DNA from: Folioceros fuciformis | Lineage: Eukaryota | Direction: 5' to 3' | NCBI GenBank assembly: GCA_049999805.1 | Contig: JBNGIO010006239.1 | Coordinates: 7,001-45,742, forward strand | DNA length: 38,742 nucleotides | In this document: positions 980 through 25,605 of the stretch, one piece after another | How positions within the stretch are numbered: position 1 is the first letter of the stretch | Layout: each line of letters opens with the position of its first letter | Notes under the pieces: generated by a model | What the model saw: the letters and a program-made list of their open reading frames with translations, nothing else | Databases searched by the model: none | Told to the model about the DNA's origin: nothing | Position numbers and translations under genes: made by a program

Positions 980-2769
980 ATTAGTGACATTACCCACCCT
1001 CTTAAGATAAGTGGCCTTGTTGTTTGAGAGACCTAGAGATGCATTATGCTACTCACGTGTTCCCTTAGGTAGGCCGTTAGTGAGGATGTTTGCGACATTA
1101 AGGGTGGTGTTGACATATTTCAGTTTAATAAATCCATGCTCTACAGTCTATATGATATAGTGGAACTGGATTTCGATATGCTTAGAGAGGGCGTACAGAA
1201 GTGAATTGGCAGTGAGTGCTATGGTTGAAAGACTATCACACTGTAGGAGAGTGTGATCTGATTGTTTCCAGCATATGCCATCCAAAAATTGTCTAACCTA
1301 AGTGATTTCTCTAGCTACTAGGGAGAGGGCACTGTACTCTGCCTCCGTAGAGGAGAGGCTCACAGTTGTGAGTTTCTTAGACTACCTAGAAATTGTTGAA
1401 TCACCAAGTATGAGACAAAATGTAGCTAGTGATTTTCTGCCATCTAAATCCCTTGCCCAATCTGCATCAGATCATGAGGTAAGGATTGTACTGGCTAAAT
1501 GTGAATACTGCACATAGAAGTCTTGTGTGCCTTGTAGATAACGCAATATGCGCTTAACAGCAATCCAATACCGCTTGTCAGGGTCTAAAAGAAATCTAGA
1601 GACAATGCAAACAACTAGTGCAATATCAGGCCGACTCCAGCCTTTAAGATATCATAAACTCCCAACGGCTTCACAATAAGGTACTAAACCCATTTCTGCC
1701 CTCTCTTCATCTATAGTTGGGCACTCCCAGAAAGGAAAGCTTATCCCCAGTTGATACTGGTGTAGATACTGGCTTAAGATTTGTTAACCCAAAATTATTA
1801 AGAAGCTGTTTAATGAAATGTGACTGATGAAAAGTAACCGTTTTACTTGCAGAATCAAAAGAGAACTCAATCCCAAGAGCAAAAGTCAAGGTCCCAACAT
1901 CTGTCATATCCCACTCAAGGGATAGCTTCTTTTTAATCTTTGTAAGAATTTGTTGATCGCTAGCAAAGATAAAATTGTCGTCTACGTATAAGGCTATAAT
2001 GCATAGTTGATTGTTTCTATGCAAGATGTAAACACTATTATCTGCATCAAGGGGTTCAAAACCCAAAGCCCTGAGTTTCTTATGAGCTCTTGCATTCCAA
2101 ATGCGAGCTGATTGCTTCAAACCATAAAAGGACTTCAACAATTCACAGACTTTATAAGGGTCAAGGATGTATTCTTCAAGGTGGAACATGTATATGATTT
2201 CATCGAATGGACCATTTGAAAAATCGGTTTTCGCGTCCATTTGGTGGACAATCAGTTTGTGTTTTACATCGTAGCAGAGAAGCAGTCTCATTGATGTTGG
2301 TTTTACAACGGGACTAAAAGTCTCATCGTAATCAATTCCTTATACTTGAGTATAACCCTTGGTCACTAATCTGACCTCATAACAAGCCATTGAACTGTCT
2401 GGATTCAATTTCAGTTTGAATACCCACTTTGACGTGATTGCCTTCATCCCCGGCGGTAAGTTGACGAGCGTTCATGGTCCATTGGATATTAAGCTGTTAT
2501 ACTTTGAGTCTATTGCCTTCTGCCATTCTACATGCTGTGGACCTGGTAGAGCTTCTTTTTATGTAAGAGGTGTGTCAGGAGGTTCCATAATAGTGGAGGC
2601 AACAGTATTGGCATAGGCCATAAGGTTAGCATGTGTTGGTTTGACTAGGGGTTGAATCAAATGGTGACCAAGAAACAAAAGTGTCCCCTGGTAAATAGGG
2701 AGGCTTAATTCATTCAGATCTAGGTCTATGTTCTCTTGGGGATCTCCTTGGGGGAGTGATATCTAGATC
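980..2769 (-). pseudogene. Copia pol remnant: linker, reverse transcriptase, RNase H
   Basis: Motifs WVFKLKLNPD, LVTKGYTQ, IDYDETFSPVV, YVDD, YCEAVGSL and SDADWA, broken by stops and frameshifts. Confidence 0.9.
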
Positions 2770-4941: not shown

Positions 4942-7422
4942 ATGAGCCTGCTGGCCTTCTCCAGCAGGAGCAGCGATCTGGGCGTGGGGCTGGATACGAG
5001 ATGGCGGCAGGAACAATGCGGATGCGGGAGTAGAAACTCCTGGACGCTGCGTGCGCGGGTGGTGGGGAAGGCTTTGAGCACCGGCAGTACGACGCAGGCA
5101 GGAAGCGCGGCAGCTGCACAGATTGTGAGCAGTGCCGGAGCTGCCGGTTGCCCATTCACCCAGCTCACCTCCCGCCTCGCGGGGCAATCTTCTCCGACTC
5201 CGAGTCCTGGGTCTGCACCGGCAGCACCCGATGGCTTGCCCATCCCGGGGCCGCATCCTTTCAGCCTCGATTCCTTCGTGGATGTCAGTCGTATCTTTTT
5301 CCACGGGCTGCATGAAGCCATGCTGTGTTTCTCGCTTAAGTACGGGCCGATCTGCAGGTGGAAACTGGAACCGTGGGTGCCGCTGAGCAATTTCTGGCAG
5401 GGCAGTTTTTCAATCCTTTGCCTGGTGGGCGGGAAGGTGGGTCCTTGCTCTGACCGTCCTCTTCCTTCACTTCCTCCTGCAGATTCGCCAATCCAGCCTC
5501 TTTGAACAATGCAACGAGCTGGGTGTTTCTCAACTCCCCTGACTTTATCCAGCATGTGTGTGCCACGAACGTCCGGAACTATGGCATGCGCTATCTCCCA
5601 GTGAGTCCCGGTTTGGTCAGGGAAATATTTGTCAGCTCGTGTCACCCACAGGTGTCCATTACTGATCGTGCCGGATTGCGTCAGGACATTTACAAGTACG
5701 TGACCCACGAGAAGGGGATTCTTGGGTCCCAGGGAGACTACAATGCCAAGCACAGGAGGCTGTGTCAACCGCCCTTCCGCAGCAAGGCGCAGCTGCACAA
5801 GTTTGCTCAGGTGGTGGTCGCCAGGTACAGCGCTGTTGTATTGTACTCTATTCTATAATTTGTATTTTATTCCTCAAATCACGCGTGCCCGTAGTCGGAT
5901 CTTGTCACAAACGATTGATGGTTTCATGCAGGTCAGTTGAGCTGGCCGACATATGGGAGCACAATGGTGGTGCGGGATTCTGCACGGATATGGCAACGCA
6001 AACGCAGCGGCTCACTCTGGACATCGTTGGCTTGGTGGCCTTCAATCACGACTTCAAGCAGACGGAGCGCATTCAGAGGGACATGTCCGGGGCTGCCAAC
6101 GATCACCGGGAGGGCACAGACCGTCTCTTGTGGGCGGTGAACACGTTTGGGGAAGTCCTCGCTGAGGTGGGTTGCTTCTGCCGTGCAATTGCGAGGTTTG
6201 AGGGCTGCGGTGCCTGGAATCCGGGGAATGGGTGGTGACCGCGGTGGGCTGTGTTTACAGGTCTTCATCACCCCGTTGCCCGTGCTCAAGTTTCTGGGGC
6301 AGATCGGGTTCCCACAGCTACGCATGCTTGAGGAGTCTGTGAAGACCATGAGGGAGTCTATGTTGGAGGTCATACAGGTAGGTGGGTCTGTGCCACACTG
6401 GTTTTTTCTGCTCGCGAGGCCATGCCCTGGACGCGTATTTGGTCTGGCCCCTTGTCCTTACCGGGAATCGGATTGAGCCTTGCTTGTGATGATTCTGCAG
6501 GAGCGTCGAGAGGCTCTGGCGGCCGGTGCCGCCCATGACGATTCTCTGCTGGGCGTGCTACTGCAGACGGTTGATGAGGATGGCAGCCCTATGACTGATG
6601 AAGAGCTGTGGGAGGATGTTCATGACGTCATGGGGGCGGGTCATGAGACAACAGCTACAACAACAGCAGCAGCCCTGTACTGCATATCTGGTACTACGAC
6701 CGTTTCGAGCTCTCGCTTGCAGTCATTTTGTCACCGAAGCTATGGCATAACACGGTGGTGTTGTCAGCACATCCTGAGGTTGAGTGCAAGGTCGCAGCAG
6801 AGCTGGACACTGCGTTGGCTGGCCGCCCTCCTGCATACGAGGACTTGGAGCGACTGCCATACCTCACGCAGTGCGTGAAGGAGACCATGAGGTTGTATCC
6901 AGCCATACCAGTGTTTCCACGGGAGGCTAAGGAGGACGATGTGCTGCCCTCCGGACACCCCATCAAATCAGGTGGGCGCAGCAGGGAAAGCATTTTCTGT
7001 CTGTCCATCGTTCATTCCCTCAACACAGCACAACGTCGCGCTAATTGCCTTAACGTTGCGCTGTGCTGGTGGCAGGTGACGTCGTGTTTATGTCATCCTA
7101 CGCGATCGGACGCTGCCCTCGGATATGGGCTGATCCTCTTACCTTCGATCCTGACCGATTCTCGCCTACAGCCAGAGCCCAACACCATAAATTCCAATGG
7201 CTACCTTTCGGGGCGGGCCCTCGTATGTGTCTGGGGGCCTCCTTTGCTCAGATGTCTGTCACGCTCATGGTAGCCACACTATTGCAGAGATTCTCTTTCA
7301 AGCCGTTGCACCCTACCAGCCAATTGATTCCGGTGCAGTATGACATTACTATGAACTTCAATGGGTCCAAGGGACTAAAGATGGGAGTTGAACCCAGATT
7401 TTTAGCGACTGAAGCTCGGTGA
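4942..7422 (+). CDS. Cytochrome P450, 8 exons, with a Ser/Ala/Arg-rich N-terminus resembling a transit peptide; possibly an algal/non-seed-plant clan such as CYP747 or CYP746 (unverified)
   Basis: Exons ~4942-5357, 5483-5600, 5685-5824, 5932-6166, 6261-6377, 6501-6690, 6768-6971, 7076-7422, joined at GT-AG. Motifs: PIPGP hinge, I-helix AGHETT, ExxR (KETMR), FDPDRF and heme motif FGAGPRMCLG. Start codon inferred. Confidence 0.93.
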
Positions 7423-8288: not shown

Positions 8289-8293
8289 GGGGG

Positions 8294-8339
<46 letters not shown>

Positions 8340-8361
8340 GGATCGAAACCCGGCGTCTCCA
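8289..8361 (+). tRNA. tRNA-Ala(UGC)
   Basis: Cloverleaf GGGGGTG-TA-GCTC..GAGC-G-CGCGC-TTTGCAT-GCGCG-AGGTA-CCGGG-ATCGAAA-CCCGG-CGTCTCC-A. G3.U70 Ala identity pair, upstream CAA, T-tracts from 8387. Confidence 0.96.
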
Positions 8362-8865: not shown

Positions 8866-8914
8866 ATCCCATATTGGTGAGGACAATTGACTGACGCCAA
8901 GTGAGAGTATATAA
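8866..8914 (+). promoter_or_regulatory. Plant snRNA promoter (USE + TATA) of U4
   Basis: ATCCCATATTG at 8866-8876 (USE consensus RTCCCACATCG) and TATATAA at 8908-8914. The ~31-bp spacing is the longer, Pol II-type arrangement. Confidence 0.85.
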
Positions 8915-8937: not shown

Positions 8938-9082
8938 ATCTTTGCGCTTGGGGCAATGACGCAGTTAGTGAGGTCACACCGAGACGCGTCAATTGCTGGT
9001 TGAAAACTTTTTCCAACCCCCCTTAGTGGCCTGCAAGGGCCACTAAGAATTTCTGGCAGGTTCGCTCCCGAGCTGAACCTAA
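8938..9082 (+). ncRNA. U4: U4 spliceosomal snRNA
   Basis: Begins ATCTTTGCGCTTGGGGCAATGACGCAG and contains TTGCTGGTTGAAAACT (plant U4 U6-pairing regions). Hairpin CTTAGTGGCC..GGCCACTAAG, Sm site AATTTCTGG (9048-9056), terminal hairpin AGGTTC..GAACCT, and USE/TATA upstream. Confidence 0.95.
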
Positions 9083-9883
9083 CAAATGAATCCCAAAACG
9101 GATGAAATGCCCTCAGGACCCCGACAAAATACGGGCCTGTCGCACTGTCCGTCAGCGGGTCAGGGAAAGGCCACGAGATGTCACCTTGAACATTGAAAAC
9201 TCTGTTTGATGTATGCTGATCTGTGAGCTCCTCATTTCATGGCCTTCCTTTCACATTCTGAGAGCACCTTCCGTGCTCACCGGGCTCACCTGAAATAACC
9301 AGTTGAGGAGGGTGACCCGGTTCTGTAAGATTTCAGTATGCTGACTGACGTTGGCAGAAAGGAATTTTCCAGTGGCACAGCATCGTGCCATTAGCACCTC
9401 CTTGACCACATGTCCAGCGTCGAGCTGTTTGTCAAGCAAGTCCGAGATCATATGCCTGAAAGAAGGCGGCATCCGACAAATGACACGCTGTATTGTTTTC
9501 CGTAGGGACTACAACATAAATGCGAGGAAGACGGCAAGGTTGGAGGCCAAACCCCCCCTGTCAATATCGGTCCGTCTGTAATACTTATACCCAACTGACG
9601 GTGCACGTTCTCAAAAGAGTGCAACTAAACTTTCAAGCTCCTGGCTACAGCTCTCACCACAAGGCCGAAACGGAATCCGGCGTTTTCTGTGGCTATGCAA
9701 CCGATTTGGCGTTCAGCTGGCCTTGGAAGCCACATTGCACATACTGACGCTCCCATGCCGTATGTGGGATCGTCTTTCAACTANNNNNNNNNNNNNNNNN
9801 NNNNNNNNNNNNNNNNNNNNNNNNNNNNNNNNNNNNNNNNNNNNNNNNNNNNNNNNNNNNNNNNNNNNNNNNNNNNNNNNNNN

Positions 9884-10384: not shown

Positions 10385-12621
10385 CTACGGTGCCAGTCTC
10401 TTTGGATCCCGTGGAAACATTGAAGTTTTCCTGATGTTATCAAGTGCACAGAAGAGCATGACAACACGCTCCAGACCCACTCCAGCACCTCCATGAGGCG
10501 GAGCACCCCACCTGCATCGGCCAAATTTGTCAATACAACTCAATGGAAAACTGAACGATGGACTCGCCAACGTGAGGTTAAGTCAGACAAACCTGAAGGA
10601 ATCGATGTAGGTTGACAAGGTTTTCACATCGATTCCACATTGCTCTGCACGCTTTGCCAAAAATCCAGGTTCGTGGATACGTTGAGCACCAGAAACGATC
10701 TCCTCCCCTGTGATCCAAATGGTAGCGGAGGTCATTCAAAACTCCAAGCTGCACCAAACTACAAGAGGTGGGCCTGTCCACAAAGTCGCATACCTCGAAT
10801 GAAAACATCAAATGAGTTGGTGTAATTTGGGTCATCAGCACACGGCATGGTGTAGAATGGGCGAACAGCTAGTGGATATCTGTGAAGAATGTAGAAGTCT
10901 GTCTTGTACCTACAAAACAGTGATGAGACTGTTAGCACCATCTCTACCCACACCAAAAAGGTCGTGAGGGCTTACTTTGCCTTGACGAGCTGACCCAGTT
11001 TCCTCTCCACTTCTGTGCTCAGGTCTCCCAAGGGATCTATCTCTACACCTGCTTCCTGCTCAGAAGAAGATTTGATCAGCCCAGAACACAGTTCAGGGAA
11101 TGCAAAATCTGAACGTGAGGAAAGATTCAAAGAATCTTCGCGCAGAAGTACCTTCAGCAGCTGAACGCCTTCAGCAAAGGTGAGACGCAAAGTCTGTCTC
11201 AGAAACTGTCGCACCCATCAAACATCGTCGTCAGAACCCCGTTTCCCCAGCAAGGAAAGCAAACAACGCACTGCACATTCGAAATGAAATAACCGCGCAC
11301 CTGAAGAGGTTCGAAAGGATATTGAGTGTTGATAGCTTGAAGTTCTCGTGCGCATTTCTCATTCAGACCATCAAAAATGGCTACGAACAGTCGATCGATC
11401 AAGTCAATCACCTGCAAGACAAAGTGGTCAGCCCTTACACACACCAAAAGAAGAGATTCTCACAATTGAGGGATGTTACCTCAAAATAATGTCCATTGAT
11501 CTCCATTTCAAGATCAAGGCCAGTGAATTCACACAAATGCCTGTGGGTGAAGGAGTCTTCTGCCCGAAATACCGGACCGATTTCAAACACTCGGCCAAAA
11601 TCTGCACAGATGCCCATCTGCTTATGTAACTGAGGTGACTGAGCAAGGCATGCCGGTTGATCCTTGTACTGGAGCTTAAAAACCGAGGACCCTCCTTCAC
11701 TTGCTCCAGCTATCAGCTTGGGCGTGTGTATCTCCACGAAATCCTCATCCAGAAGGAATTGCCGGAAAAGCTACAAAGGACAACAGACAGAATCCTTCGC
11801 ATCAAGGTTCTTCCATCTACATGGAAATTTGATTGAAGAGGGGAAAGAATCGCTCACCCTACCGTGCCAACTTGAGACTGGATCCGGAAAATCCCCTGGT
11901 TTGCAGGGGTGCGCAAGTCGAGAACCCTGTTGTTAAGCCTCGAGTCTTGGAGGACACGAACAAACTGGACATTCTCCTGGACAACGAAGGGCAAGAAAAT
12001 GAGCCCACACTAGGACATCAGATTTCTAGGCTTTCCTCATGCACCTCTGTCATTCGTCGGGGTACGGTACCTCAGCTGCTTTCTCAATCTCACGCTCGCT
12101 TCGAGCTGCATCTTCAGGGTTGATAGGCAGCACTGGTTCCGCCTTACTGACGCAGTAGACTTTGCGGACCTGAATCTCGACCTGCCAGCACACGCAAAAC
12201 GTTCAAACACGCGGGCAGCGCGCATCCGAAACTTCATACCTGTTCGCACCATCCATACCTGCTGCGAGGTCGCAGCGATGGGAGTGCCTGGCACGGACAC
12301 CACGCCCTCGACGTCGATGACGCTTTCCTTGTTGATGGCCCCAACGAACTTGAGCATCTTGTTGCTGGCGTGCTCCCCCTTGNNNNNNNNNNNNNNNNNN
12401 NNNNNNNNNNNNNNNNNNNNNNNNNNNNNNNNNNNNNNNNNNNNNNNNNNNNNNNNNNNNNNNNNNNNNNNNNNNNNNNNNNCCTTCCCTCCAGCCGCCC
12501 CCGCCAGCTGCTGCCGCAGCTGCTTCTCTGCCTTCATAGCTGCCTTCTTGGTCGCCTTCTTGCTCAGGGCTCCCGCCTCCGCAGCAAGCTCCGGAGCGCC
12601 GGCATCTCCACCGGACGCCAT
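10385..12621 (-). CDS. Cytosolic aspartyl-tRNA synthetase (multi-exon; part of the N-terminal OB-fold is lost in gap 12383-12482)
   Basis: Exons translate to [64 protein letters not shown] (motif 2), [38 protein letters not shown] (motif 3) and [10 protein letters not shown]. Confidence 0.96.
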
Positions 12622-13261
12622 CCTGCTGCTCGGGCCGCCGACAAAAACTCACACGGCCTGAGAGCTCCCTTGCTACACGTGAATGAAAGTTGGTACCTTC
12701 CCGCAAGCATGCGAGTGACAATGCAGAACGTCAGGCCCTTCTGCCGGCACCAGAACCCAGACAATCTGACCCAAGGTCCTTCAAGGAACCAGCTCAGTGA
12801 ATTCCAGGGCAGAGGCAAAATTGGGGCATTGTCTCATAATCCCCTCTGTTTAGTGATGCTATCAACGCATTTAGGTCGACGGATTGAGATCCTGCGTCCT
12901 TAGACACTGGAGCCTCCTCTCGCAGTGTTGGTCCTGTCACAGCTGGGGAAACCAATAGCAGGCAGGTCCAGACTTTATAAAGGGGCAGGCCCTGGCTGGA
13001 AATTAATTAAGGATGATATTTATTTATTTTGTTCTCAATGTGAGCAATTACTAAGACACTTGCTAGTGATGCTCCGTTCCTTCACCCGCTGATGACTTGC
13101 TGGATGGATGATGGGGCCAATGTCCGTTCTTTTGAAGGATTTCTTGCATCGCTGCTACCGNNNNNNNNNNNNNNNNNNNNNNNNNNNNNNNNNNNNNNNN
13201 NNNNNNNNNNNNNNNNNNNNNNNNNNNNNNNNNNNNNNNNNNNNNNNNNNNNNNNNNNNNG

Positions 13262-16200
13262 CCATGGAATCTGCTCCAAGTGTTGGGATTGGAGAGGGGT
13301 GGCCTGCCGAATCGCGTGGTGCTGGAGCTGCGGGCGAGTGGGAATCCGCAGGGGAAGGCCTGGTATGTGGTGTGGGGAGGGGCTTTGGCTGATTCACCGG
13401 ACATCGAGGTCCCGCAGGCGCTGGCGTACTGCATGGGAGTGGAGGACGGATGCCGGGTGCAGGCCCGGGCGGTGGCGGATCTCATGAAGGCCAGCAGAGT
13501 GCAGATCATGCCGGCCAATGAGGACGACTGGGAGGTGCTGGAGCTGAACGCAGAGTTCATGGAGGAGCAGATTCTGAACCAGGTGGCCGTGCTGCAGGAG
13601 GGGCAGAGGTTTCCCGTCTGGGTGCACGGCCACACTCTGCTTGTGCTCACTGCTGTGTCCACGGCTCCGAAGAAGGTGGTGCAACTCGTGGCGGGATCGG
13701 AGCTGCTTGTGGCGCCTATACCGAGGAAGCTCAAGGGAGCTGCGGAGGACAGTGCGGCGGGAGTACATTCTTCTGAGGCGTGGTTGCGGATTCAAGAGCT
13801 GGATTCGAGGCTTCCGCTGCAGTGTCAGGTGGGAAGTGTTGCGTGCACCACGCAGCCGACTACGGTCGTGTTTGTATCTGCAAGCACGGCACGGGCAGCT
13901 CGTTTGGAAGATAAGCAAGTGGTGGTCGTGGTGGCAGGTCCTGGTCTGCGGAACGGGTTACAGAAGGCAGATTCTGGGAGGACGGATGGTATGTTGTTGA
14001 GGCTAGGGGAGCTGCCAGGGCCGGGGGATGACTCCGCTTTGGGTGTTGACAGCGGAGCCGGGGCTAGGCAGGCGTTCGTGCGTGTCTGTGTGCGGCCAGG
14101 AGTGTCCAAGGGGCATGTAATGATGGCTCAAGCCCTGCGCCTTTTCCTCGGGGCTAAATTACACACTCGTGTGCATTTCCAGGGTGTCCCTCAATCCTCA
14201 TCGACATCCAAGCCTTCTTACCTCCTCTTGTCTCCCTTAGGGTTTGTCGAAGGTCAGCGAGAGCAAGGGCCTGGAGCGTTTTCTGGCAGGGCTATGGTTT
14301 CAGCAGAGGACGATTTGGGTGCAGGGTTGTCGGCCGAGGGACCTCTTTCTACTGTGTCGAGGCACAAGGATTTGCTTGCAGCTGCTATGGTGGAGGGGTC
14401 AGCACAACCGAATTCTGCAGCAGCTAACGCTGAGAGGGGAAATGGGTACGGGGCAGCTGTCATAATCAGGGCATGGGTGTCTGCTCAAATCTCTCTTGGC
14501 TGGCACTCGAGCCATGGAGACGATGCTGCAGTTCCACTTGGCGGCAAGGCTGTCATTCATCTCAGGTTAGCTGTGCAGGCTGACTCGCAGAAAGTGGATG
14601 AGGAATACGCTCTGCCTGGCTGGTCGAGGATGGTTGACGAAGGGACAACGAAGAGGCAGACAAGAGACTTGTTCTTTTTGCTAGTATCACAGAGTTCGGC
14701 TGTTAATTCCAGATCAGCGCTGTCTGTGTCAAGGATCGCAGAGGATAAGAATTACTTCTACTATTTGTCCGAAACGTCGTCACTGCTAGATCCCGCTTTG
14801 GCAGTGAGAGGGGAGGTGCCTGGGGAAGCTTCGGAGAGACAGGGCCAGATTCGTCTGGGCCGCCCCCAATTGGCACCGTGTCCAACGGGGATGGATATAG
14901 AGGAAAATGAGGCTCCAGAGTTGTCATCGCTTTCTTGGTTGGAAGGCCCAGCATCTGAGAGCATTTCCAGGTTGCGCGTACTGCTTTCGCCAGTGTTGCG
15001 AGGCAATGGTATTAGGTCCGAAATACCTTGCCCTGGGAGTGTGCTTCTACATGGACCATCTGCATGCGGGAAGACTCATCTGGCTTTGGCACTGGCTCGA
15101 GATTTGAAAAATGACCCTTCCATAGTGGCCCACACTGTCTTTGTGAGGTGCCTAGAGCTGGTCGGGGAGCAAGCACAGACGGTGAGAGCTGCACTTGAGG
15201 AAGCCATCTCTGAGGCACAACTACGTGCACCGTCCTTGATCATACTGGATGATTTGGATGCTCTCTTTCCTCCTTCAGATTCTGGAGGAAGTGAACCTAG
15301 TATAGCGGCTCTTGCTGAATTCCTCGGGGACCTGATGGACGACGCACAGAGAAGCTGTGAACCAGCAGCAACTGCTTTTCTTGGGATAGCAAAATCACCT
15401 ACAACTCTTCCAGCAACCCTGTGCTGTGCCGGAAGATTTGACTTCTATGTGGAGTTACCGGCTCCAGCAGCCAAAGCAAGGGCAGCCATCCTACTACGAG
15501 CAGTTGAATCTCGTAGATTTGTTTGCCCTCAACAAGTTGCGGACAAAGTGGCGGCAAGCTGTGATGGATGTGATGCAATAGACTTGGAACTTCTGGTGGA
15601 CAGAGCAGTCCATTCAGCCACTGCACGCTACCTCTCTCCCAACGTGGCTCCTTCGTCTAGTCCAGCTCCTGCTACAGCTACACTTATAAACGTAGAGGCA
15701 GAGGAGGAGGGTGGCAGACCGCAGAGATCCAAGGCACTGGCAAGGATGAGTGCAGAGGATGCTCATTTGTCGATGTGCAGAGAGAAGTTTGAGTTGCTGG
15801 AGCAGGACTTTATGTTCGCTCTTGAAGATTTCGTGCCGGTTGCTATGAGAGGCATTGCCAAGAAAGCGTCTCATGGAGAACAGGTAGGGTGGGACGACGT
15901 CGGAGGCTTAGCTGAAACTTGTCACAAAATACGAGACATGCTGGAGACGCCTGCAAAACATAGCAAGATTTTTGCCGAGGCTCCCTTGAGGTTAAGATCA
16001 GGGGTTTTGCTATTCGGACCCCCTGGATGTGGCAAGACTCATCTGGTAGGTGCAGCTGCAGCAGCATGTTCACTCCGCTTTATATCTGTGAAGGGACCTG
16101 AACTTCTGAATAAGTACATCGGAGCTTCTGAGCAGGCAGTTCGAGACCTTTTCTCAAGGGCGGCTTCTGCAGCTCCATGCATCTTGTTTTTTGACGAGTT

Positions 16201-16783
16201 TGACGCTATAGCACCAAAAAGAGGGCACGATAACACAGGTGTGACAGATCGTGTTGTGAACCAGCTCCTGACAGAACTGGACGGCGTACAAGCTCTCAAT
16301 GGAGTGTTTGTGTTTGCTGCAACCAGCCGGCCTGACCTCCTGGACGCGGCACTCCTAAGGCCAGGGCGGTTGGACCGGCTCCTTTTCTGTGACTTTCCGT
16401 CCACCGAAGAGCGCGGGGACATTTTGAGAATATTGTCCCGCAAATTGCCTTTGGCGGAAGATGTTGATCTGAACCTGTTAGCATCGCTGACGAATGGTTT
16501 CAGTGGTGCAGATTTGCAGGCTGTGCTATCAGATGCGCAGTTGGAGTCCATTCACTGCTTTCTGGATAGCTGTGAAGAGGGCACTACTATGGCAAGTGGA
16601 GGTGAGGAAAGAAAACCCTTCATTACTATGGCACAACTGGAAGCCACAGCCTTGAAGGCAAGGCCTTCTGTAACAGAGATGGACAAGAAAAGACTCAATG
16701 CCATCTATGACGACTTCTTGGGTAACAGGTCTCCATCTCCTATGGCGAGGGACACCAAAGGCAAGCGAGCCACTTTGGCGTGA
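13262..16783 (+). CDS. PEX1: Peroxisomal AAA ATPase PEX1; single uninterrupted ORF, true start probably in or near gap 13161-13260
   Basis: PEX1 N-domain (EDDWEVLELNAEFMEEQILNQV), D1 (GPSACGKT, LIILDDLD), D2 (GPPGCGKT, KGPELLNKYIGASE, FFDEFD, APKRGHDNTGVTDRVVNQ) and the typical C-terminus GKRATLA. Confidence 0.96.
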   Translation, partial: PWNLLQVLGLERGGLPNRVVLELRASGNPQGKAWYVVWGGALADSPDIEVPQALAYCMGVEDGCRVQARAVADLMKASRVQIMPANEDDWEVLELNAEFMEEQILNQVAVLQEGQRFPVWVHGHTLLVLTAVSTAPKKVVQLVAGSELLVAPIPRKLKGAAEDSAAGVHSSEAWLRIQELDSRLPLQCQVGSVACTTQPTTVVFVSASTARAARLEDKQVVVVVAGPGLRNGLQKADSGRTDGMLLRLGELPGPGDDSALGVDSGAGARQAFVRVCVRPGVSKGHVMMAQALRLFLGAKLHTRVHFQGVPQSSSTSKPSYLLLSPLGFVEGQREQGPGAFSGRAMVSAEDDLGAGLSAEGPLSTVSRHKDLLAAAMVEGSAQPNSAAANAERGNGYGAAVIIRAWVSAQISLGWHSSHGDDAAVPLGGKAVIHLRLAVQADSQKVDEEYALPGWSRMVDEGTTKRQTRDLFFLLVSQSSAVNSRSALSVSRIAEDKNYFYYLSETSSLLDPALAVRGEVPGEASERQGQIRLGRPQLAPCPTGMDIEENEAPELSSLSWLEGPASESISRLRVLLSPVLRGNGIRSEIPCPGSVLLHGPSACGKTHLALALARDLKNDPSIVAHTVFVRCLELVGEQAQTVRAALEEAISEAQLRAPSLIILDDLDALFPPSDSGGSEPSIAALAEFLGDLMDDAQRSCEPAATAFLGIAKSPTTLPATLCCAGRFDFYVELPAPAAKARAAILLRAVESRRFVCPQQVADKVAASCDGCDAIDLELLVDRAVHSATARYLSPNVAPSSSPAPATATLINVEAEEEGGRPQRSKALARMSAEDAHLSMCREKFELLEQDFMFALEDFVPVAMRGIAKKASHGEQVGWDDVGGLAETCHKIRDMLETPAKHSKIFAEAPLRLRSGVLLFGPPGCGKTHLVGAAAAACSLRFISVKGPELLNKYIGASEQAVRDLFSRAASAAPCILFFDEFDAIAPKRGHDNTGVTDRVVNQLLTELDGVQALNGVFVFAATSRPDLLDAALLRPGRLDRLLFCDFPSTEERGDILRILSRKLPLAEDVDLNLLASLTNGFSGADLQAVLSDAQLESIHCFLDSCEEGTTMASGGEERKPFITMAQLEATALKARPSVTEMDKKRLNAIYDDFLGNRSPSPMARDTKGKRATLA

Positions 16784-17020
16784 CTTACTGCATGTGCTCA
16801 TGCAACAAGGTGAGAACTTCTTGTCACGTCAGATCCCCTTGGCCGCAGCAAACTGAAGCACCTGATAAGGAGAAGACGCCTCGGGGGTGCTGTTATGCGC
16901 CGTTCAACAACTCTGACTTCACAAGTGAAGTCCCCTGGTCTGTGCGTCACACCGGGCGTTAGCCTCGAACTCTTCCTCTATCAAGGAAACTTGGATAAAA
17001 GTCAGCCAGACGTGATTCGC

Positions 17021-17264
17021 AAAATCCGCGTTCATTGGCTGCCCCAAGAAGTACCGGTATATGCACACCTGATTACCGGCACATTAACTACGGAACTGTA
17101 CGTTTTGTCGTTTCAACAGCACGCTCGGCGGAGGGCCGTTCCGATAACGGCCCTCTAGCACAGACCTAGTAGTGGACTTCACTACACTTCCGGACATAGC
17201 GGCAGCGTGGTCCACCCACACCCTCATGCCTTGCGCCATTGAGGGAGCTACGGAGTGAACGCGG
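17021..17264 (-). ncRNA. Candidate structured non-coding RNA of unknown family, downstream of tRNA-Met
   Basis: 9-bp terminal helix (17256-17264 with 17026-17034) enclosing at least six stems, followed by T4. Most internal mismatches are G.U pairs on the minus strand. No expression evidence. Confidence 0.55.
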
Positions 17265-17279
17265 TCGATTCCAATCAGC

Positions 17280-17283
17280 AAAA
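17280..17283 (-). terminator. Minimal T4 Pol III terminator of tRNA-Met
   Basis: Minus strand reads ...CCCCA-GTAAC-TTTT-GCTG. Confidence 0.6.
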
Positions 17284-17288
17284 GTTAC

Positions 17289-17373
17289 TGGGGTGAGAGA
17301 GGCTCGAACTCTCGACCTCAGGATTCCTCTGGAGCTATGAGACCTACGCGCTAGCCAACTGCGCCACCACCCC
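17289..17373 (-). tRNA. Elongator tRNA-Met(CAU) with 11-nt intron
   Basis: Minus strand: GGGGTGGTGGCGCAGTTGGCTAGCGCGTAGGTCTCATA[gctccagagga]ATCCTGAGGTCGAGAGTTCGAGCCTCTCTCACCCCA. Intron at the canonical 37/38 position, as in plant tRNA-Met(e). Upstream CAA. Confidence 0.97.
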
Positions 17374-18366
17374 TTGCTGTAAATGGCTAAACTTAAAACT
17401 TTATTGTTAATTTTTTTGATGTACCAAAGTATCCTACTAAAGATATATCATGGGTTCTCCAGATTATTAAGAATGTCAATTTATAGCCTTTTTCCCTTCA
17501 GCCCAAGTACAGTCTCCGTGAAAGACTGCTTGATATCAAAATAAAGTATTCAATTTTGAAGTCAGCCTTATCAAGAGGTGATTATAAATTAAATACGGTT
17601 CAAAAATGATAACCAACATTGAAATACACGACATTTTTTTAACCTATATGTTTACACGAAGGAAGAGGGACTGGAGGAATGAAGCAAGGAGGAGAAGGAG
17701 GAAAACGTGGAGCGACCCAGCGGCAATTCGGTGGAAGGATCCGGCCATCTCCCACAATTGACTCCCTACGATGCCTTGTCGGGCCAGCCTTGTCTACCTG
17801 GCCCGAGGTGGAGCTTGACATTTGATGATACCGGAGGCATGCAGTTTGCTCTACCACGCTGCCTCCTTCGACGTTTGACAATAGAGGATCCACGCGGATA
17901 TGCGGTAGCCGGCAAGATTTTGCACAGGCCTTGGAATCGTGTGGCCTTGGGCTAACAGTTCCAGTCACATATTGCATGCTCATATTGTCAGCTCTGATGC
18001 TTCCGAGGCATGCGGTTGCTTCATGGGAGTTGCGGATCGAGATCTCGGGAGGGAAAAATTGTTACGTTCACCGATTCTGGTGCAATTCCTGGCCAGATAT
18101 CTGAGGGGCCGATCACGCACGAACTTGATCCACAGCAGGGGGAGTGAAACAGTTGAGGAGGTCGGCCATTTTTGGATCCTTGGGATACCGGATTTTTCGC
18201 TCTTCTCGGTGCTCGTGTACTGGTCGGCTGTTAAGCAGAATTGTCAGTGTTGCAGACTGCACCGTCAAAGGCTGTGTTGAAGAGGCAATACTTGGTTTGA
18301 CGGTCCTAAGGGCTCTCCAGATTGTTGAATCATAGGGGATCATTTCAATCTGGAGAGCACTGCAAG

Positions 18367-21300
18367 ATGTGGTTCTTTTATGCCTTGGCTTTGCCTGTGG
18401 CAGTGGCCCTCGTGGTCTTTACCTTACAGTATTTCGCGTCTCCCACTGTCTCCGTGCACGTGAAGCTCATCGTAGGTTATGCGTGGTTCTGTACAATTGC
18501 GGTCATTGTGCTCGTGCCTGCGGATATTTGGACGGTGAGCTGCGTGCCGAATCACTTGTAGTCTGGTTGATCAGACGTCATTTGAAGCGGTCAAGGCTTA
18601 AATACTATTCCGATGTCACATTTTGGTGCGCTGCCATTGACTTCTTGATTCCTTGTAACAGACACTCTCAGACGGTGATCAGCACAATCTAGAATTCCTT
18701 TGGGGCTGGTCGTACTGGAGCACGTTCGTTCTCACTTGGTATTTCGACTCCAACATCTCGTTTTTCTAAAGTTGCTGACATTCTCAGTTGTTGTCTGTGT
18801 GATTCCTGCTATGATGGATGTTTGGCTATGATGATATGTGAACTGTAGATTACAGATGAGGATATTCTTGCTGCTTGTGAAGCACATCTTAACTTGGGAT
18901 TGGTGCATTAGGGCAATCGTGCCATTGTTGCAAGGATTTGAGGATGCCGGGGACTTCACAGCTGCACAGAGAATAAAAACAAGCATCAAGAGCAATTTCA
19001 TCCTCTATTCCAGCGTGGGGGTCGTGGGATTTGTTGGCGTTGTCATATTGATCATTATGGGTAAATTGAAATGGTAAGGGTAGCTGCTCTTCATCCCGGG
19101 TTTGTAAATCCTCCTGATGAAGGTTTAAACACAGAGTTAAACTGGTTGTAGTTGATGTTAGTGCCCTCTGACAAACTTCTCCAATGCCATGCAGGGATGG
19201 TGTACTGGGTCTTGCCATGGCGTGCTCAAACACATTTGGTCTGGTTACTGGTGCATTTCTGTTGGGGTATGGTCTTGTTTCTGTTCCTCGCAGTCTTTGG
19301 TGGAACGCTGACCTACAGTTCCGCCAAAAGTGGCTGACCCATAAAGTTGTAAGAGTAGCCGAGAAACTTGACACGGCTCACACAGAACTGTCTACAGCTN
19401 NNNNNNNNNNNNNNNNNNNNNNNNNNNNNNNNNNNNNNNNNNNNNNNNNNNNNNNNNNNNNNNNNNNNNNNNNNNNNNNNNNNNNNNNNNNNNNNNNNNG
19501 AGTAGCCGAGAAACTTGACACGGCTCACACAGAACTGTCTACAGCTATTGTGGTGGGTGTCAGAAAGACTGTAACAACTGCTGTGTGTACCATAATCTGC
19601 TTGAGTTTCGAATCTTAAAGCTTTTTCACATGTTTTGCAGATTGCACAAGCAACTTCGAACCAGATGTCAAGGCGAGATCCCATGCGTGGGTACATGGAT
19701 ATTATTGATCAAGAGTTGCAAGAAATGGTACAGCGCTATTCATGCGTCCTTGTTGAAAGAGCTTGACCATAGCTGCTGTTCATTTGTCTATAATAGGACA
19801 TGCAACTGCCTTTGCTCCCTTCAGCCCCTAAAAAATCAATCACAGGTCAAAGACGATCCTGCGTTCAAACCATCAGGGGGTAGAATGGGTGAGAGTGACA
19901 TGGATTACGACACCGATGAAACCACTATGGCTGAATTGAGAAGGAGATTAAAAAAATGTAAAGAAACATACACACGGTACAAGAGGTATGCCAACATATT
20001 CTGTCTTGTGGTCTGCCATTTGTGATGTACATTGTCATTAATATCCCCAAGCTTTAATTCACGAAAAGGTGGATAGGTGCTTTTAGAGTGATTTCTGCCT
20101 AATGGTGTAAGGTTCGTTGTGCAGCGAGTACATATCCTTTGTAAGGGAGGCTCTCGAGCTTGAGGATACTGTAAAAAATTCAGAGCGAGGCAATTCCCCA
20201 GACAAGTTAGTATACGTTACAATTTTGACTAGAGGAGCTAGCTTGATCTTTTCCCCTTTGTGGCAGCAGCAGCTCCTGATTTTGTGTGAGACAGCTGCCA
20301 ATCAGCATGTAGGCAAAGTCATGCTATGATTGAAGGAAAATGGTGTTTTGCAGGCGCTTTATCTCATCTTTACGCCCTGCTCGTGTTGGTCCTCTGGCTC
20401 CAATGCTAGAAACACTTGGTGAGCCACGTGATATGTTTAACTCTGGTGAACAGATGCAACATGGAGTAGAAGGTCACAGATCTTCGTACGGCTCGGTTGA
20501 CATATCTGCTGACACAAAAAAACTCTCTGATTTGTAGAGTGGATCTGGAGGTGCAGAGTGAGGCAGCAGGCTGTGAGACTTGCGGCAGTGGTGATGGTTT
20601 TAATGTCACTGGCTATCATAGCTGCAGAGGCAACCCTTATTTTTAAGCACGGGCTGGACCTTTCTCTTTTCTCGCTTTTGATCAATGCCCTAGGAGACGA
20701 GGAAATGTCTGTCCAGGTTTGTACCGGCACATCTTCCCGCCTTGTCTTTGCTCGGTGACTAAGCCTTGCAGGTGACAGTTGTTCCCTTTTCACAAGCCTG
20801 ATCTAGGATGACATGTCTTGCAGATTGTAGCATTTATCCCCCTGTTGTACATGTGCATCTGCACTTACTACTCTTTGGCCAGGCTTGGGATGAACACTTT
20901 GTACTATCTCTCTCCAAGGCACACCAACTCTGTGAGCTTGCTGATGATCTGCTCGTAATTTACTTCACCTCATCATTTTTTATCAATGCTGAATAGTGTA
21001 TAACAGGATTTGCTGATGCTATTGTTCTTGATGTAGACTACCAGGTCTTGCTTGGGTTCTCTGACGTTGCTTTGTGCTGTGCCTATACAGCATGGTGGCT
21101 CGGTATGCTGCGCCTTTGTCATATAACTATCTCAATTTGATTCGGTTAAATGCCCCGAGAAAGACAACGTTTGAAACAGTACGTTCTTTTATTAGGTTGA
21201 AGCCTTCTAATTCCCTGCATCGGGACTGTTGTTGGTGACACTCATAATGGCATGTGGCTGGATTTACAGAAAATGGGAACGATGGAGGTCTTGCCAATTT

Positions 21301-24033: not shown

Positions 24034-25605
24034 CTAGACATGACCTGATCTCACACAGAACTCCCGCATGAAACGAAAAATGTTGTTCACCTCATGCTCA
24101 GGTTGTTCCATGGTTCCCCCTTCCCCCTCCCCATCGTCCCCCTGCTCTTGTTCTCCCCCCTCCTCCTCTTCTTCTTCTTCATCGTCCTCCTCCTCTTCCT
24201 CCGAGCCCCGCCTCCCCAGCCAATCCCTGTACAGAGCGAGCCTGGTGTCTTCGCCAAAGCTCGCAAGATACCTCTCATCCTCAGGAACCGGAATCCAGTC
24301 CTCCATGTGAAGGTTGGGGTGCGGGTCGACAGGATCCCTTCCGGGCACAGGCTCCCCGTGCAGTTGACAAAAATTATGAAGCACGCAGCAGGCAACGGCG
24401 GTCTGAGCCGCATACTCCAACCCGACGTCCATGTTCCTCATAATCCTCCACCTGCTCTTGAGCATCCCGAACGCGGCCCCGATCCTCTCCCTCCCCTTGC
24501 TCAGCTGCGCGTCGAAGGCATTGAGGTGACACACGCTGTTGCCTTGATCCTCCCGCCCCGGGCTTCCGCCAGCAAATGGAGTGATGAGAAACGGGAGCAG
24601 CGGGTACGCGGAATCCCCAACCAAATACGGTCTCACCTCCCTCCCGTCCACCACCTCCAGCGGCTCCGCCAGCTCCCCGCCTTCCATGAGCTTACTCCAC
24701 AGCCGACTAGACCTCAAGTGCGCCGCGTCCCCCAGCCCGCCCGGACCGTTACAGCACACGTCCCAGAAGACGCAGTCGGCATCGCACACGCCCTGGAGCA
24801 GCACGCTGTAGAACCCGTGCTGCGTCCAATACCTTGGGGGGGAGGAATCCGACGAAGGGATCTGGCTGAGCCGGACGTGAGTCCCGTCGATGGCACCGCA
24901 CACATTAGGCAGGCCAGTGACGGCCTGGAAGCCGAGCGCGATCCTGCGCAACCGCCTGCCCGCCGGCGCCTGCACGTACCTGGAGTAGAGCTTGCCGCGG
25001 CTGGCAAGGGCGTGCGTCACCACGAGGGTGTAGCAGGCTACGGCGGCCGAGGAGACGGCGTACAGCTCGGCGACGGCGGCGGGGGCCAGACCGTGCGCGA
25101 GGCGGTGCAGAACCATGGCCACGGCCCGCTCCACCTCCACGGGAGCACACTCCCCTGCCGCCACCGCCTGCTGCTGCGCCTGCTGCAGGAAAGGCCGCAG
25201 CTCCTCCACCAGCAAGGTGAAGACCGGAAAGGAGACGCGGTATCGCCGCCTCCACTGCCGGTTCCTGCTCGCCTCGTCCATGCGCCGCGCTCTACTGTGC
25301 AGCAGCTTCCAGGAGGTAGCTTTCCTCGGGAGCTTGCAGGCTCGGGATCCTCCGCTACCGCTTCCTCCTCCTCCATGCTGCTGCTGCTCCCTCTCCTGCT
25401 GCTTCTCCTTGTCGGACGCGCACACCAGAGCGAACAGCGCCGCGTAGAGCATCACCACCACAGGCGCCATGGGCATCTGCAACACCATCAGCTTCACCAC
25501 CGCCGACTCCATGGCGCTCCCCTCCATGCCTACCGGCTCCCCCTCCCTCCCCCTGCCACACTGCCACGCCCCGCTCCTCACCCATTTTGCGCCCGGAACT
25601 ATCAA
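24034..25605 (-). CDS. PIF/Harbinger transposase-derived nuclease-like protein (ALP1/HARBI1-like, DDE_Tnp_4); start may be a downstream Met
   Basis: HTH-like region (VAMVLHRLAHG), GAIDGTH, YLVGDSAYPL, AFGMLKSRW, ACCVLHNFC and an acidic tail. Intact 523-aa ORF; no TIRs seen. Confidence 0.9.
   Translation of the reverse strand: MIVPGAKWVRSGAWQCGRGREGEPVGMEGSAMESAVVKLMVLQMPMAPVVVMLYAALFALVCASDKEKQQEREQQQHGGGGSGSGGSRACKLPRKATSWKLLHSRARRMDEASRNRQWRRRYRVSFPVFTLLVEELRPFLQQAQQQAVAAGECAPVEVERAVAMVLHRLAHGLAPAAVAELYAVSSAAVACYTLVVTHALASRGKLYSRYVQAPAGRRLRRIALGFQAVTGLPNVCGAIDGTHVRLSQIPSSDSSPPRYWTQHGFYSVLLQGVCDADCVFWDVCCNGPGGLGDAAHLRSSRLWSKLMEGGELAEPLEVVDGREVRPYLVGDSAYPLLPFLITPFAGGSPGREDQGNSVCHLNAFDAQLSKGRERIGAAFGMLKSRWRIMRNMDVGLEYAAQTAVACCVLHNFCQLHGEPVPGRDPVDPHPNLHMEDWIPVPEDERYLASFGEDTRLALYRDWLGRRGSEEEEEDDEEEEEEEGGEQEQGDDGEGEGGTMEQPEHEVNNIFRFMREFCVRSGHV

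Follow-up and report, generated by a model that had tools for sequence, protein, structure and literature searches.

Behind an elongator-type tRNA-Met gene of Folioceros fuciformis lies a short self-complementary segment of DNA. The question raised by this locus is whether the segment gives rise to a structured RNA and, if so, whether that RNA has a function of its own. An earlier note had proposed that the tRNA and the segment form a dicistronic unit transcribed by Pol III, in which a stable RNA is made by read-through and is released by processing of the tRNA 3' end.

We analyzed the segment within the whole stretch of DNA available to us, which is 38,742 nucleotides long and is here called the window. 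The best explanation of the results is that the segment, present in one copy and specific to its lineage, is a GC-rich series of hairpins that lies between tRNA-Met(e) and the 3' end of PEX1, the convergent gene. As to its role, we tentatively favor the reading that it is a read-through trailer of the tRNA-Met gene, ending at a back-up terminator formed by a stem plus T4. Palindromes that have no role at the RNA level are nearly as likely as such a trailer.

The segment and its setting

The window is eukaryotic and plant-like in character. A scan of the whole window at Rfam gathering thresholds recovered U4 and two tRNAs, and nothing else. A PIF/Harbinger-type transposase frame and a fragment of a copia-type RT also occur elsewhere in the window. 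The genes relevant to this report are as follows (positions are those of the window).

8289-8361, plus strand: tRNA-Ala (ARAGORN and Rfam)
8867-8876 and about 8908-8914: upstream elements of U4, a plant-type USE and a TATA box, respectively
8938-9078, plus strand: U4 snRNA gene (Rfam, 107 bits)
13280-16783, plus strand: uninterrupted open frame of 1167 codons for PEX1 (peroxisomal AAA ATPase), assigned by its PEX1 relatives; convergent with tRNA-Met
17289-17373, minus strand: tRNA-Met(CAU) gene, elongator-type, intron-bearing (ARAGORN; Rfam tRNA, 48.7 bits)
about 17327-17337, minus strand: tRNA-Met intron, 11 nt (at 17327, 11 nt are missing from another organism's RNA contigs)
17356-17366, minus strand: tRNA-Met A box (motif match)
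start near 17695-18310, plus strand: LMBR1-like gene, right of tRNA-Met

The top database relative of the PEX1 frame is a protein at 59% identity. Among the 13 proteins listed, most named angiosperm PEX1 proteins are 40-42% identical to it over nearly the full query length; the outliers are one match of 54% identity over 53% of the query and one of 37%. The region upstream of tRNA-Met is AT-rich and carries CAA just ahead of the start. Sequencing runs X4 and X12, which stem from other organisms, cover the tRNA alone and not the segment.

The segment and the T-runs around it are composed of the following parts, in the order in which they would be transcribed from the tRNA.

17280-17283, minus strand: first T4, at +6 to +9 from the tRNA-Met 3' end; probable primary Pol III terminator
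17265-17288, minus strand: AT-rich spacer of 24 nt (GC 0.375) from tRNA-Met to the closing helix
17021-17264, minus strand: self-complementary segment of 244 nt (GC 0.557), in which a closing helix encloses six internal stems and A-UUUU forms the end
17256-17264 with 17026-17034, minus strand: closing helix, perfect, 9 bp (pair probability 0.77-1.0)
17221-17245, minus strand: GCAA hairpin (stem of 6 bp, internal bulge, tetraloop C-GCAA-G; pair probability 0.52-0.99)
17172-17215, minus strand: arm closed by 6 bp (pair probability 0.65, versus 0.32 for its competitor)
17096-17163, minus strand: domain closed by a 6-bp stem with one G.U, 17158-17163 with 17096-17101 (probability 0.32-0.39)
17131-17155, minus strand: perfect, GC-rich 10-bp hairpin with a 5-nt loop (pair probability 0.9-1.0)
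17106-17118, minus strand: 5-bp hairpin with one U.G and a 3-nt loop (pair probability 0.77-0.86)
17051-17082, minus strand: 9-bp arm (8 Watson-Crick pairs and one G.U) with extra inner pairs (pair probability 0.93-1.0)
17021-17024, minus strand: second T4, separated by 1 nt from the closing helix on its 3' side; may serve as a hairpin-assisted back-up terminator, by analogy with the yeast work in the available part of PMC9278858
16997-17000, minus strand: third T4

All stems that the earlier note had listed lie where it had placed them, and the 9-bp helix that it had described 24 nt past the tRNA end is present in the sequence, followed by A and UUUU at 17025-17021. According to the partition function, nearly all pairs of the closing helix, the GCAA hairpin, the 10-bp hairpin and the 17051-17082 arm have a probability of at least 0.9; the exceptions are one terminal pair each in the closing helix (0.77) and in the GCAA hairpin (0.52). 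Two rivals compete with the 17172-17215 arm: one is a 5-bp hairpin formed locally, the other a long-range pairing of 6 bp with 17038-17043. The domain at 17096-17163 contains the 10-bp and 5-bp hairpins, and its closing stem is the least certain helix of the model, with other pairings predicted to compete. Altogether, the minus-strand structure model has 68 pairs, made up of 61 Watson-Crick and 7 G.U pairs.

Folding strength was assessed against dinucleotide shuffles, as the note had advised, and is pronounced on both strands. The minus strand has an MFE of -101.4 kcal/mol and a z-score of -3.73 (200 shuffles, 1 of them as good), and the plus strand -89.8 kcal/mol and -4.11 (200 shuffles, none as good); an independent repeat with 40 shuffles gave -4.16 and -3.42, respectively. 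For comparison, 34 random 244-nt windows from the same stretch have a mean z of -0.2 (sd 1.1, minimum -2.9). When 1264 windows were scanned and regressed on GC, the largest residual was that of the segment in its exact frame, -24.5 kcal/mol versus -24.2 kcal/mol for the next. Equally extreme folds are found at the U4 locus (z -4.3 and -4.9, antisense frame) and inside a cytochrome P450 exon at 6833-7137 on the minus strand (z -3.6 to -3.9), of which the former is a true RNA gene and the latter is not. The segment folds beyond chance; it exceeds the background of its window only partly and is not unique in it.

The earlier assignment to the minus strand had been drawn from G.U pairs. Three wobbles in core helices favor the minus strand, but one in the inward extension of the closing helix favors the plus strand; in the plus-strand fold this extension consists of two pairs, one of them the wobble in question. 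All 7 G.U pairs of the minus-strand model become A.C on the plus strand, a count that is biased by the structure having been predicted for the minus strand. The lower energy of the minus strand is matched by lower energies of its shuffles, and the z-score does not separate the strands. We regard the minus-strand call as plausible but weak.

Proposed read-through from tRNA-Met and its alternatives

Promoter motifs, either general ones or those derived from the U4 gene of this window, were sought around the segment. There is no USE-like site within 700 nt, the nearest site with one mismatch being 700 nt off, and no A or B box with at most 1 mismatch inside 17021-17264, which agrees with the earlier remark that USE and TATA are absent here. 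The only exact USE match in the window is that of U4, and the total count of 5 compares with 7.9 expected by chance. Because the segment, as far as these motifs indicate, has no visible promoter of its own on either strand, the tRNA gene would be the only visible source of minus-strand transcription, and read-through from it the only visible Pol III route into the segment.

Several properties of dicistronic tRNA units can be recognized at this locus. A leading tRNA with an internal promoter precedes a second element in the same orientation, as judged by position and wobble pairs, and a candidate terminator stands right behind this element (T4 at 17024-17021, with another at 17000-16997). The interval between the two is where the locus departs from such units. 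Known dicistronic tRNA units are defined, in the accessible text of PMC2566860, by the absence of a T-track (four or more T) after the tRNA, whereas here T4 occupies 17283-17280. Loose contig ends of DNA run X1 give the flanks of other tRNA-Met copies in the same genome, whose sequence departs from that of the present locus exactly at the limits of the tRNA. In one of them the first T-run is a T4 at about equal distance from the tRNA; in a further flank (two records, consensus agreement 0.67) it is a T6 slightly farther downstream. Because the first of these copies has T4 at a similar place, we read the T4 behind the present tRNA-Met as probably the ordinary terminator of the gene, and read-through as a minority event. 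Its position at +6 to +9 therefore means that read-through can only be partial. In this respect the earlier reading has to be amended. Other elements of it are supported, namely that the segment is structured, is unassigned in Rfam, has the orientation of the tRNA and ends in a helix followed by T4. The segment is also single copy and shows no target-site duplication.

Some read-through past the first T4 is nevertheless to be expected. T4 is the minimum accepted Pol III terminator, and of the plant groups compared, the embryophytes other than angiosperms have the smallest proportion of tDNAs followed by a T-run of at least 4, and so the weakest tDNA terminators (both from the portion of PMC13437025 at hand). 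By the logic of hairpin-assisted termination, a T4 only a few nucleotides behind the acceptor stem of the tRNA should terminate well, and read-through may be rare.

From this arrangement we infer read-through, termination at 17021 and release by RNase Z, in the following manner. The majority of Pol III would halt at the first, minimal T4 (+6 to +9 from the tRNA end), and the polymerases that escape would continue for about 260 nt. The nascent RNA would fold into a multi-helix domain closed by the 9-bp helix, and this helix, together with the second T4 1 nt on, would act as a hairpin-assisted back-up terminator. Escaped polymerases would probably stop at 17021, where only 1 nt separates the second T4 from the closing helix, a geometry that favors release in yeast in vitro. 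This back-up stop would arrest Pol III within the 3' terminal part of the PEX1 transcript, which is convergent, and short of its coding sequence. A cut by RNase Z after the tRNA would leave a trailer of about 268 nt whose 5' and 3' ends are paired and which carries a U-tail.

In support of a read-through trailer, the fold lies in the extreme tail of the window background, and an apparently functional tRNA gene lies in the same orientation 24 nt away. Opposed to it are the 61 Watson-Crick pairs among 68 and the equal z-scores of the two strands, both as expected of DNA palindromes, the excess of hairpins across the window, and the P450 exon that folds as extremely. The GC content also tells against it: the segment (0.56) continues the level of the PEX1 3' flank (0.52), and a fall comes only at the tRNA-proximal edge (spacer, 0.375; past the tRNA, 0.33).

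Much of the same evidence suits an origin at the DNA level, in which young palindromes, produced by local inverted duplications in a hairpin-rich genome, have come to lie behind a tRNA by chance, and any transcription of them is noise. We consider this explanation a serious one and nearly as likely as the trailer. The stems are nearly perfect and fold alike on both strands. Perfect hairpins of at least 9 bp number 12 in the window versus 4.55 +/- 2.9 expected under a first-order Markov model, and those of at least 10 bp number 8 versus 1.55 +/- 0.74. A coding exon attains the same z-score. Moreover, part of the segment recurs in inverted orientation in the PEX1 3' flank, 210 nt from its source at 17158-17183.

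16924-16945, plus strand: inverted partial copy of minus-strand 17183-17158 (21 of 22 positions, one 4-nt gap)

This 22-nt inverted partial copy is all that an alignment of the segment with 16800-17020 (plus strand) reveals; no second copy of the segment lies there. A palindrome with 16-nt arms at 18309-18361 has a half copy at 17452-17468. The near-perfect stems and the inverted copies fit local inverted duplication as a possible source of the hairpins. Three observations are harder to reconcile with palindromes behind a tRNA by chance. Only three loci in 38.7 kb reach z of -3.6 or below, and this one begins 24 nt past one of the only two tRNAs and shares its orientation; T4 runs number only three in 589 nt, and one of them comes 1 nt after the closing helix of this locus; and the nested, non-overlapping helices form a single closed domain, not one long fold-back.

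Conservation bears on both of these explanations. Relatives were collected by synteny as 80 metagenome loci that encode relatives of PEX1; they are distant, their best segments being 30-75% identical. A scan of the 14 best-scoring of the 80 loci, 10 of these 14 having a best segment of at least 59% identity, found no tRNA. Homologues of the segment, which the earlier note had advised seeking behind tRNA-Met(e) in related genomes, did not appear in any of the 80 loci, whose distance makes this a weak test: the best blastn match has an E-value of 0.18, and no match came from nhmmer. With a covariance model made from the segment alone (R1), the only matches outside the window had E-values of 4.5 and 9.8. 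As an indirect test, a 66-codon open frame that runs through the segment was compared with 1.84 billion protein representatives, and nothing related was found; the one match (E 2e-6) is unrelated and covers 25 residues of a 747-residue protein. Repetition in paralogues or relatives with compensatory changes, which would mark a dicistronic unit, is not seen: the segment is single copy, and 0 of 80 distant loci match it, a weak result. The absence of tRNAs from the 14 loci and of sequence or model likeness from the 80 counts against the trailer, and the lack of a homologue among distant PEX1-linked loci and protein representatives accords with palindromes.

A more far-reaching claim, close to that of the earlier note, is that the segment is a stable functional RNA of about 245-270 nt, of no described family, that is made by Pol III read-through of tRNA-Met(e) and freed by RNase Z. 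On present evidence we consider this unlikely; it would require, on top of the steps proposed above for the read-through trailer, that the released RNA accumulates and has a function.

If the plus strand is read instead, the segment might be a structured distal part of the PEX1 3' UTR, or the region in which the PEX1 3' end is formed. A 3183-nt contig of run X2 extends unbroken from inside the PEX1 frame to 17117 and matches 16600-17117 without a mismatch. Run X2 is taken as RNA by guess; its contigs total just 48.6 Mb, and it is probably a poly(A)-type transcriptome. It is probable, then, that the 3' 97 nt of the segment lie within a transcript contiguous with PEX1, although contigs of this kind cannot give the strand or the end of a transcript. 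They leave 17118-17694 uncovered, an interval that takes in the tRNA and, counted from its 5' end, 60% of the segment; in a poly(A)-type run this is no evidence of absence. The continuous GC content and the plus-strand z-scores of -3.4 to -4.1 also suit a 3' UTR. On the other hand, the three core-helix wobbles become A.C mismatches on the plus strand, and no AAUAAA-like motif occurs in 16985-17130. Folding was also compared in the 720 nt after the PEX1 match for the four relatives whose match reaches the PEX1 C-terminus: three of them, including the closest (L059, L007 and L055), have no 244-nt window below z -1.7, and the distant, GC-rich locus L005 reaches -3.8 and -3.2. A structured 3' UTR of PEX1 is, in our judgment, decidedly unlikely.

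Known RNA families and mobile elements

Pol III RNAs of the 245-nt size class have a helix that joins their 5' and 3' ends, and a U-tail. The segment, with its approximately 245 nt, joining helix and U-tail, resembles them, and it might be a diverged RNase MRP or P RNA, telomerase RNA, SRP RNA, snoRNA or scaRNA that covariance models miss. We rate this as highly improbable. A permissive cmscan of 551 nt (16900-17450) found no Rfam family at an E-value of at most 10, apart from the tRNA and one match at chance level. The latter is to the trypanosomatid snoRNA TB9Cs4H1 (15.2 bits versus a gathering score of 40, E 4.5) and straddles the tRNA end. The earlier statement that the segment is unassigned thus holds for Rfam. 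In addition, the USE and TATA box that the U4 gene of this window possesses are missing here.

Individual candidates were considered as follows. The C box, RUGAUGA, is found near the 5' end of box C/D snoRNAs, the D box, CUGA, near the 3' end, and a terminal stem joins the ends. There is no TGATGA on the minus strand of 16990-17290, and CTGA occurs only at 17278 and 17005, both outside the segment, so that a snoRNA resembling snoR43 was rejected; this motif search bears out the earlier remark that C/D boxes are lacking. By covariance model, no snoRNA in Rfam reaches its gathering score. Plant telomerase RNA was likewise rejected: no permutation of CCCTAAA, CCCTAA or CCCTAAAA, the three common telomere units to which the search was confined, occurs on either strand, and there is no USE. 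Plant telomerase RNAs are sought, in the excerpted methods of PMC8287931, by a template that spans one telomere unit and at least 1 nt more and by the USE of a type-3 promoter. RNase MRP and RNase P RNA, with their conserved P4 regions, and SRP RNA, with its helix 8, gave no covariance-model match at an E-value of at most 10 in the 551 nt.

The segment is single copy in DNA run X1 and is not a dispersed repeat. In the contigs of that run its depth is 9.7-11.4, versus 8.1-10.5 in the flanks and 22-43 in the tRNA part, and no second copy at 80% identity or more is present among the 11 records found, each of which is accounted for. Neither possible pair of inverted-repeat ends is flanked by an adjacent direct repeat of 2-10 nt. 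Dispersed copies with TSDs, which would have spoken for a transposon, were therefore not found. A MITE- or SINE-like element inserted behind the tRNA is barely credible, despite an imperfect 22-nt terminal inverted repeat (73% complementary) and the transposase frame and RT fragment elsewhere in the window, in view of the single-copy depth, the missing direct repeats and a multi-branched interior that is not one fold-back.

Comparison with known systems

Known tRNA-led Pol III units carry short, recognizable second RNAs, such as a snoRNA, 5S rRNA, RUF70 or a miRNA. If the trailer accumulates, it would be a large multi-helix RNA of no known class that arises by tRNA read-through in a non-angiosperm plant lineage, and it would widen the repertoire of such transcripts. 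If the segment serves only to stop Pol III, it would be a natural plant case of hairpin-assisted back-up termination, so far shown mainly in yeast in vitro, that shields a convergent protein gene. If it does neither, it would call for caution, since a strong fold (z-score near -4), together with a closing helix and a T4 close by, would not by itself make an RNA gene.

The closest counterparts in plants are the dicistronic genes processed by RNase Z, that is, tRNA-Gly-snoR43 of Arabidopsis and tDNA-eMet with a C/D snoRNA of rice, as given in the available portions of PMC2566860 and PMC7671301. Judged by those portions, the present locus shares with them a leading tRNA, which in rice is also an elongator tRNA-Met, a promoterless second element in the same orientation, and an expected release by tRNA 3' processing. 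It differs in that the downstream part is 244 nt long and multi-branched, lacks C/D boxes and is preceded by T4 after the tRNA. It also differs in being a single locus, the other tRNA-Met copies having other flanks. A literature search, to the extent that the texts were accessible, yielded no tRNA-linked RNA of this size in plants.

The tRNA-led Pol III units of Yarrowia offer a precedent for a second RNA of no known family, RUF70, which was recognized by the position of its T-track. Those units have no feasible terminator within 50 nt of the tRNA and spacers of 4-17 nt, whereas here T4 begins at +6 and the spacer is 24 nt. They also occur in 13 to 48 copies with compensatory changes, and their products were detected by RT-PCR and northern blot, whereas the present locus is one copy known from sequence.

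In size class, end-joining helix and U-run, the segment is like the plant type-3 Pol III RNAs of 250-300 nt, which include telomerase RNA, RNase MRP RNA and 7SL. It is unlike them in having no USE or TATA, no telomere template and no match to a covariance model.

Hairpin-assisted termination provides the last comparison. In yeast in vitro, according to the available text of PMC9278858, a hairpin at most 7 nt upstream markedly improved release of Pol III at T4, and a spacer of 18 nt abolished the effect. The same text describes a hairpin from 5S, not one from plants, and reports yeast read-through regions to be less structured than the genomic average, the opposite of what is seen at this locus. 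The likeness lies in the geometry: the stable helix of the segment ends 1 nt before T4, within the 0-7 nt range given in that text.

Strong folding within coding sequence

On the minus strand, 6833-7137 yields z-scores (fold energy against dinucleotide shuffles) of -3.6 to -3.9, and its fold is as extreme as that of the structured segment behind the tRNA-Met gene. This stretch contains a hairpin of approximately 17 bp and sits within a cytochrome P450 exon, so such z-scores occur in coding sequence of this window. Across the window as a whole, short perfect hairpins are more numerous than expected. The protein-coding frames concerned here and below are as follows.

6728-7270, plus strand: cytochrome P450 exon frame (Pfam p450, E 3e-17)
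13280-16783, plus strand: PEX1 (peroxisomal AAA ATPase), one uninterrupted frame of 1167 codons

Repeats and intron at the tRNA-Met gene

An inverted partial duplicate links the 3' flank of PEX1 (16924-16945, plus strand) to the central part of the structured segment (17158-17183, minus strand), with agreement at 21 of 22 positions and one 4-nt gap; its copies would pair on a minus-strand read-through transcript. A 13-mer at 16961-16973 matches the T-arm/B-box region of the tRNA-Met gene (17300-17312) at 12 of 13 positions, in direct orientation and 339 nt away; it may reflect chance or be a relic of a tRNA fragment. Where the LMBR1-like gene region starts, a palindrome (18309-18361) has 16-nt arms that are 94% complementary and a 21-nt loop, and a 17-nt half copy of it (88%) is located upstream of tRNA-Met, at 17452-17468.

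In contigs of X12, a tRNA-sequencing-like run from another organism, the tRNA-Met exons are matched and 11 nt are missing at 17327-17337. This gap fits removal of the 11-nt tRNA-Met intron.

Runs of N, mobile-element sequences and the U4 locus

Four runs of exactly 100 N each are present (9784-9883, 12383-12482, 13161-13260 and 19400-19499). Because the same 15-residue peptide appears in the translation of both flanks of the last run, an assembly gap with duplicated edges within the LMBR1-like gene is suggested. The remaining features include two mobile-element sequences, of which the transposase frame is located in a block of 59-71% GC.

1710-2291, minus strand: copia-type reverse-transcriptase fragment (RVT_2)
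24037-25605, minus strand: PIF/Harbinger-type transposase frame (DDE_Tnp_4, Plant_tran)
8867-8876, plus strand: plant-type upstream element of the U4 gene
8938-9078, plus strand: U4 snRNA gene (107 bits)

A tRNA-Ala gene lies on the same strand as U4, 577 nt upstream of it; its first T-run, a T4, comes only at +26 and is followed by two T5 runs. The U4 TATA box, at about -30, is approximately 31 nt beyond the plant-type upstream element.
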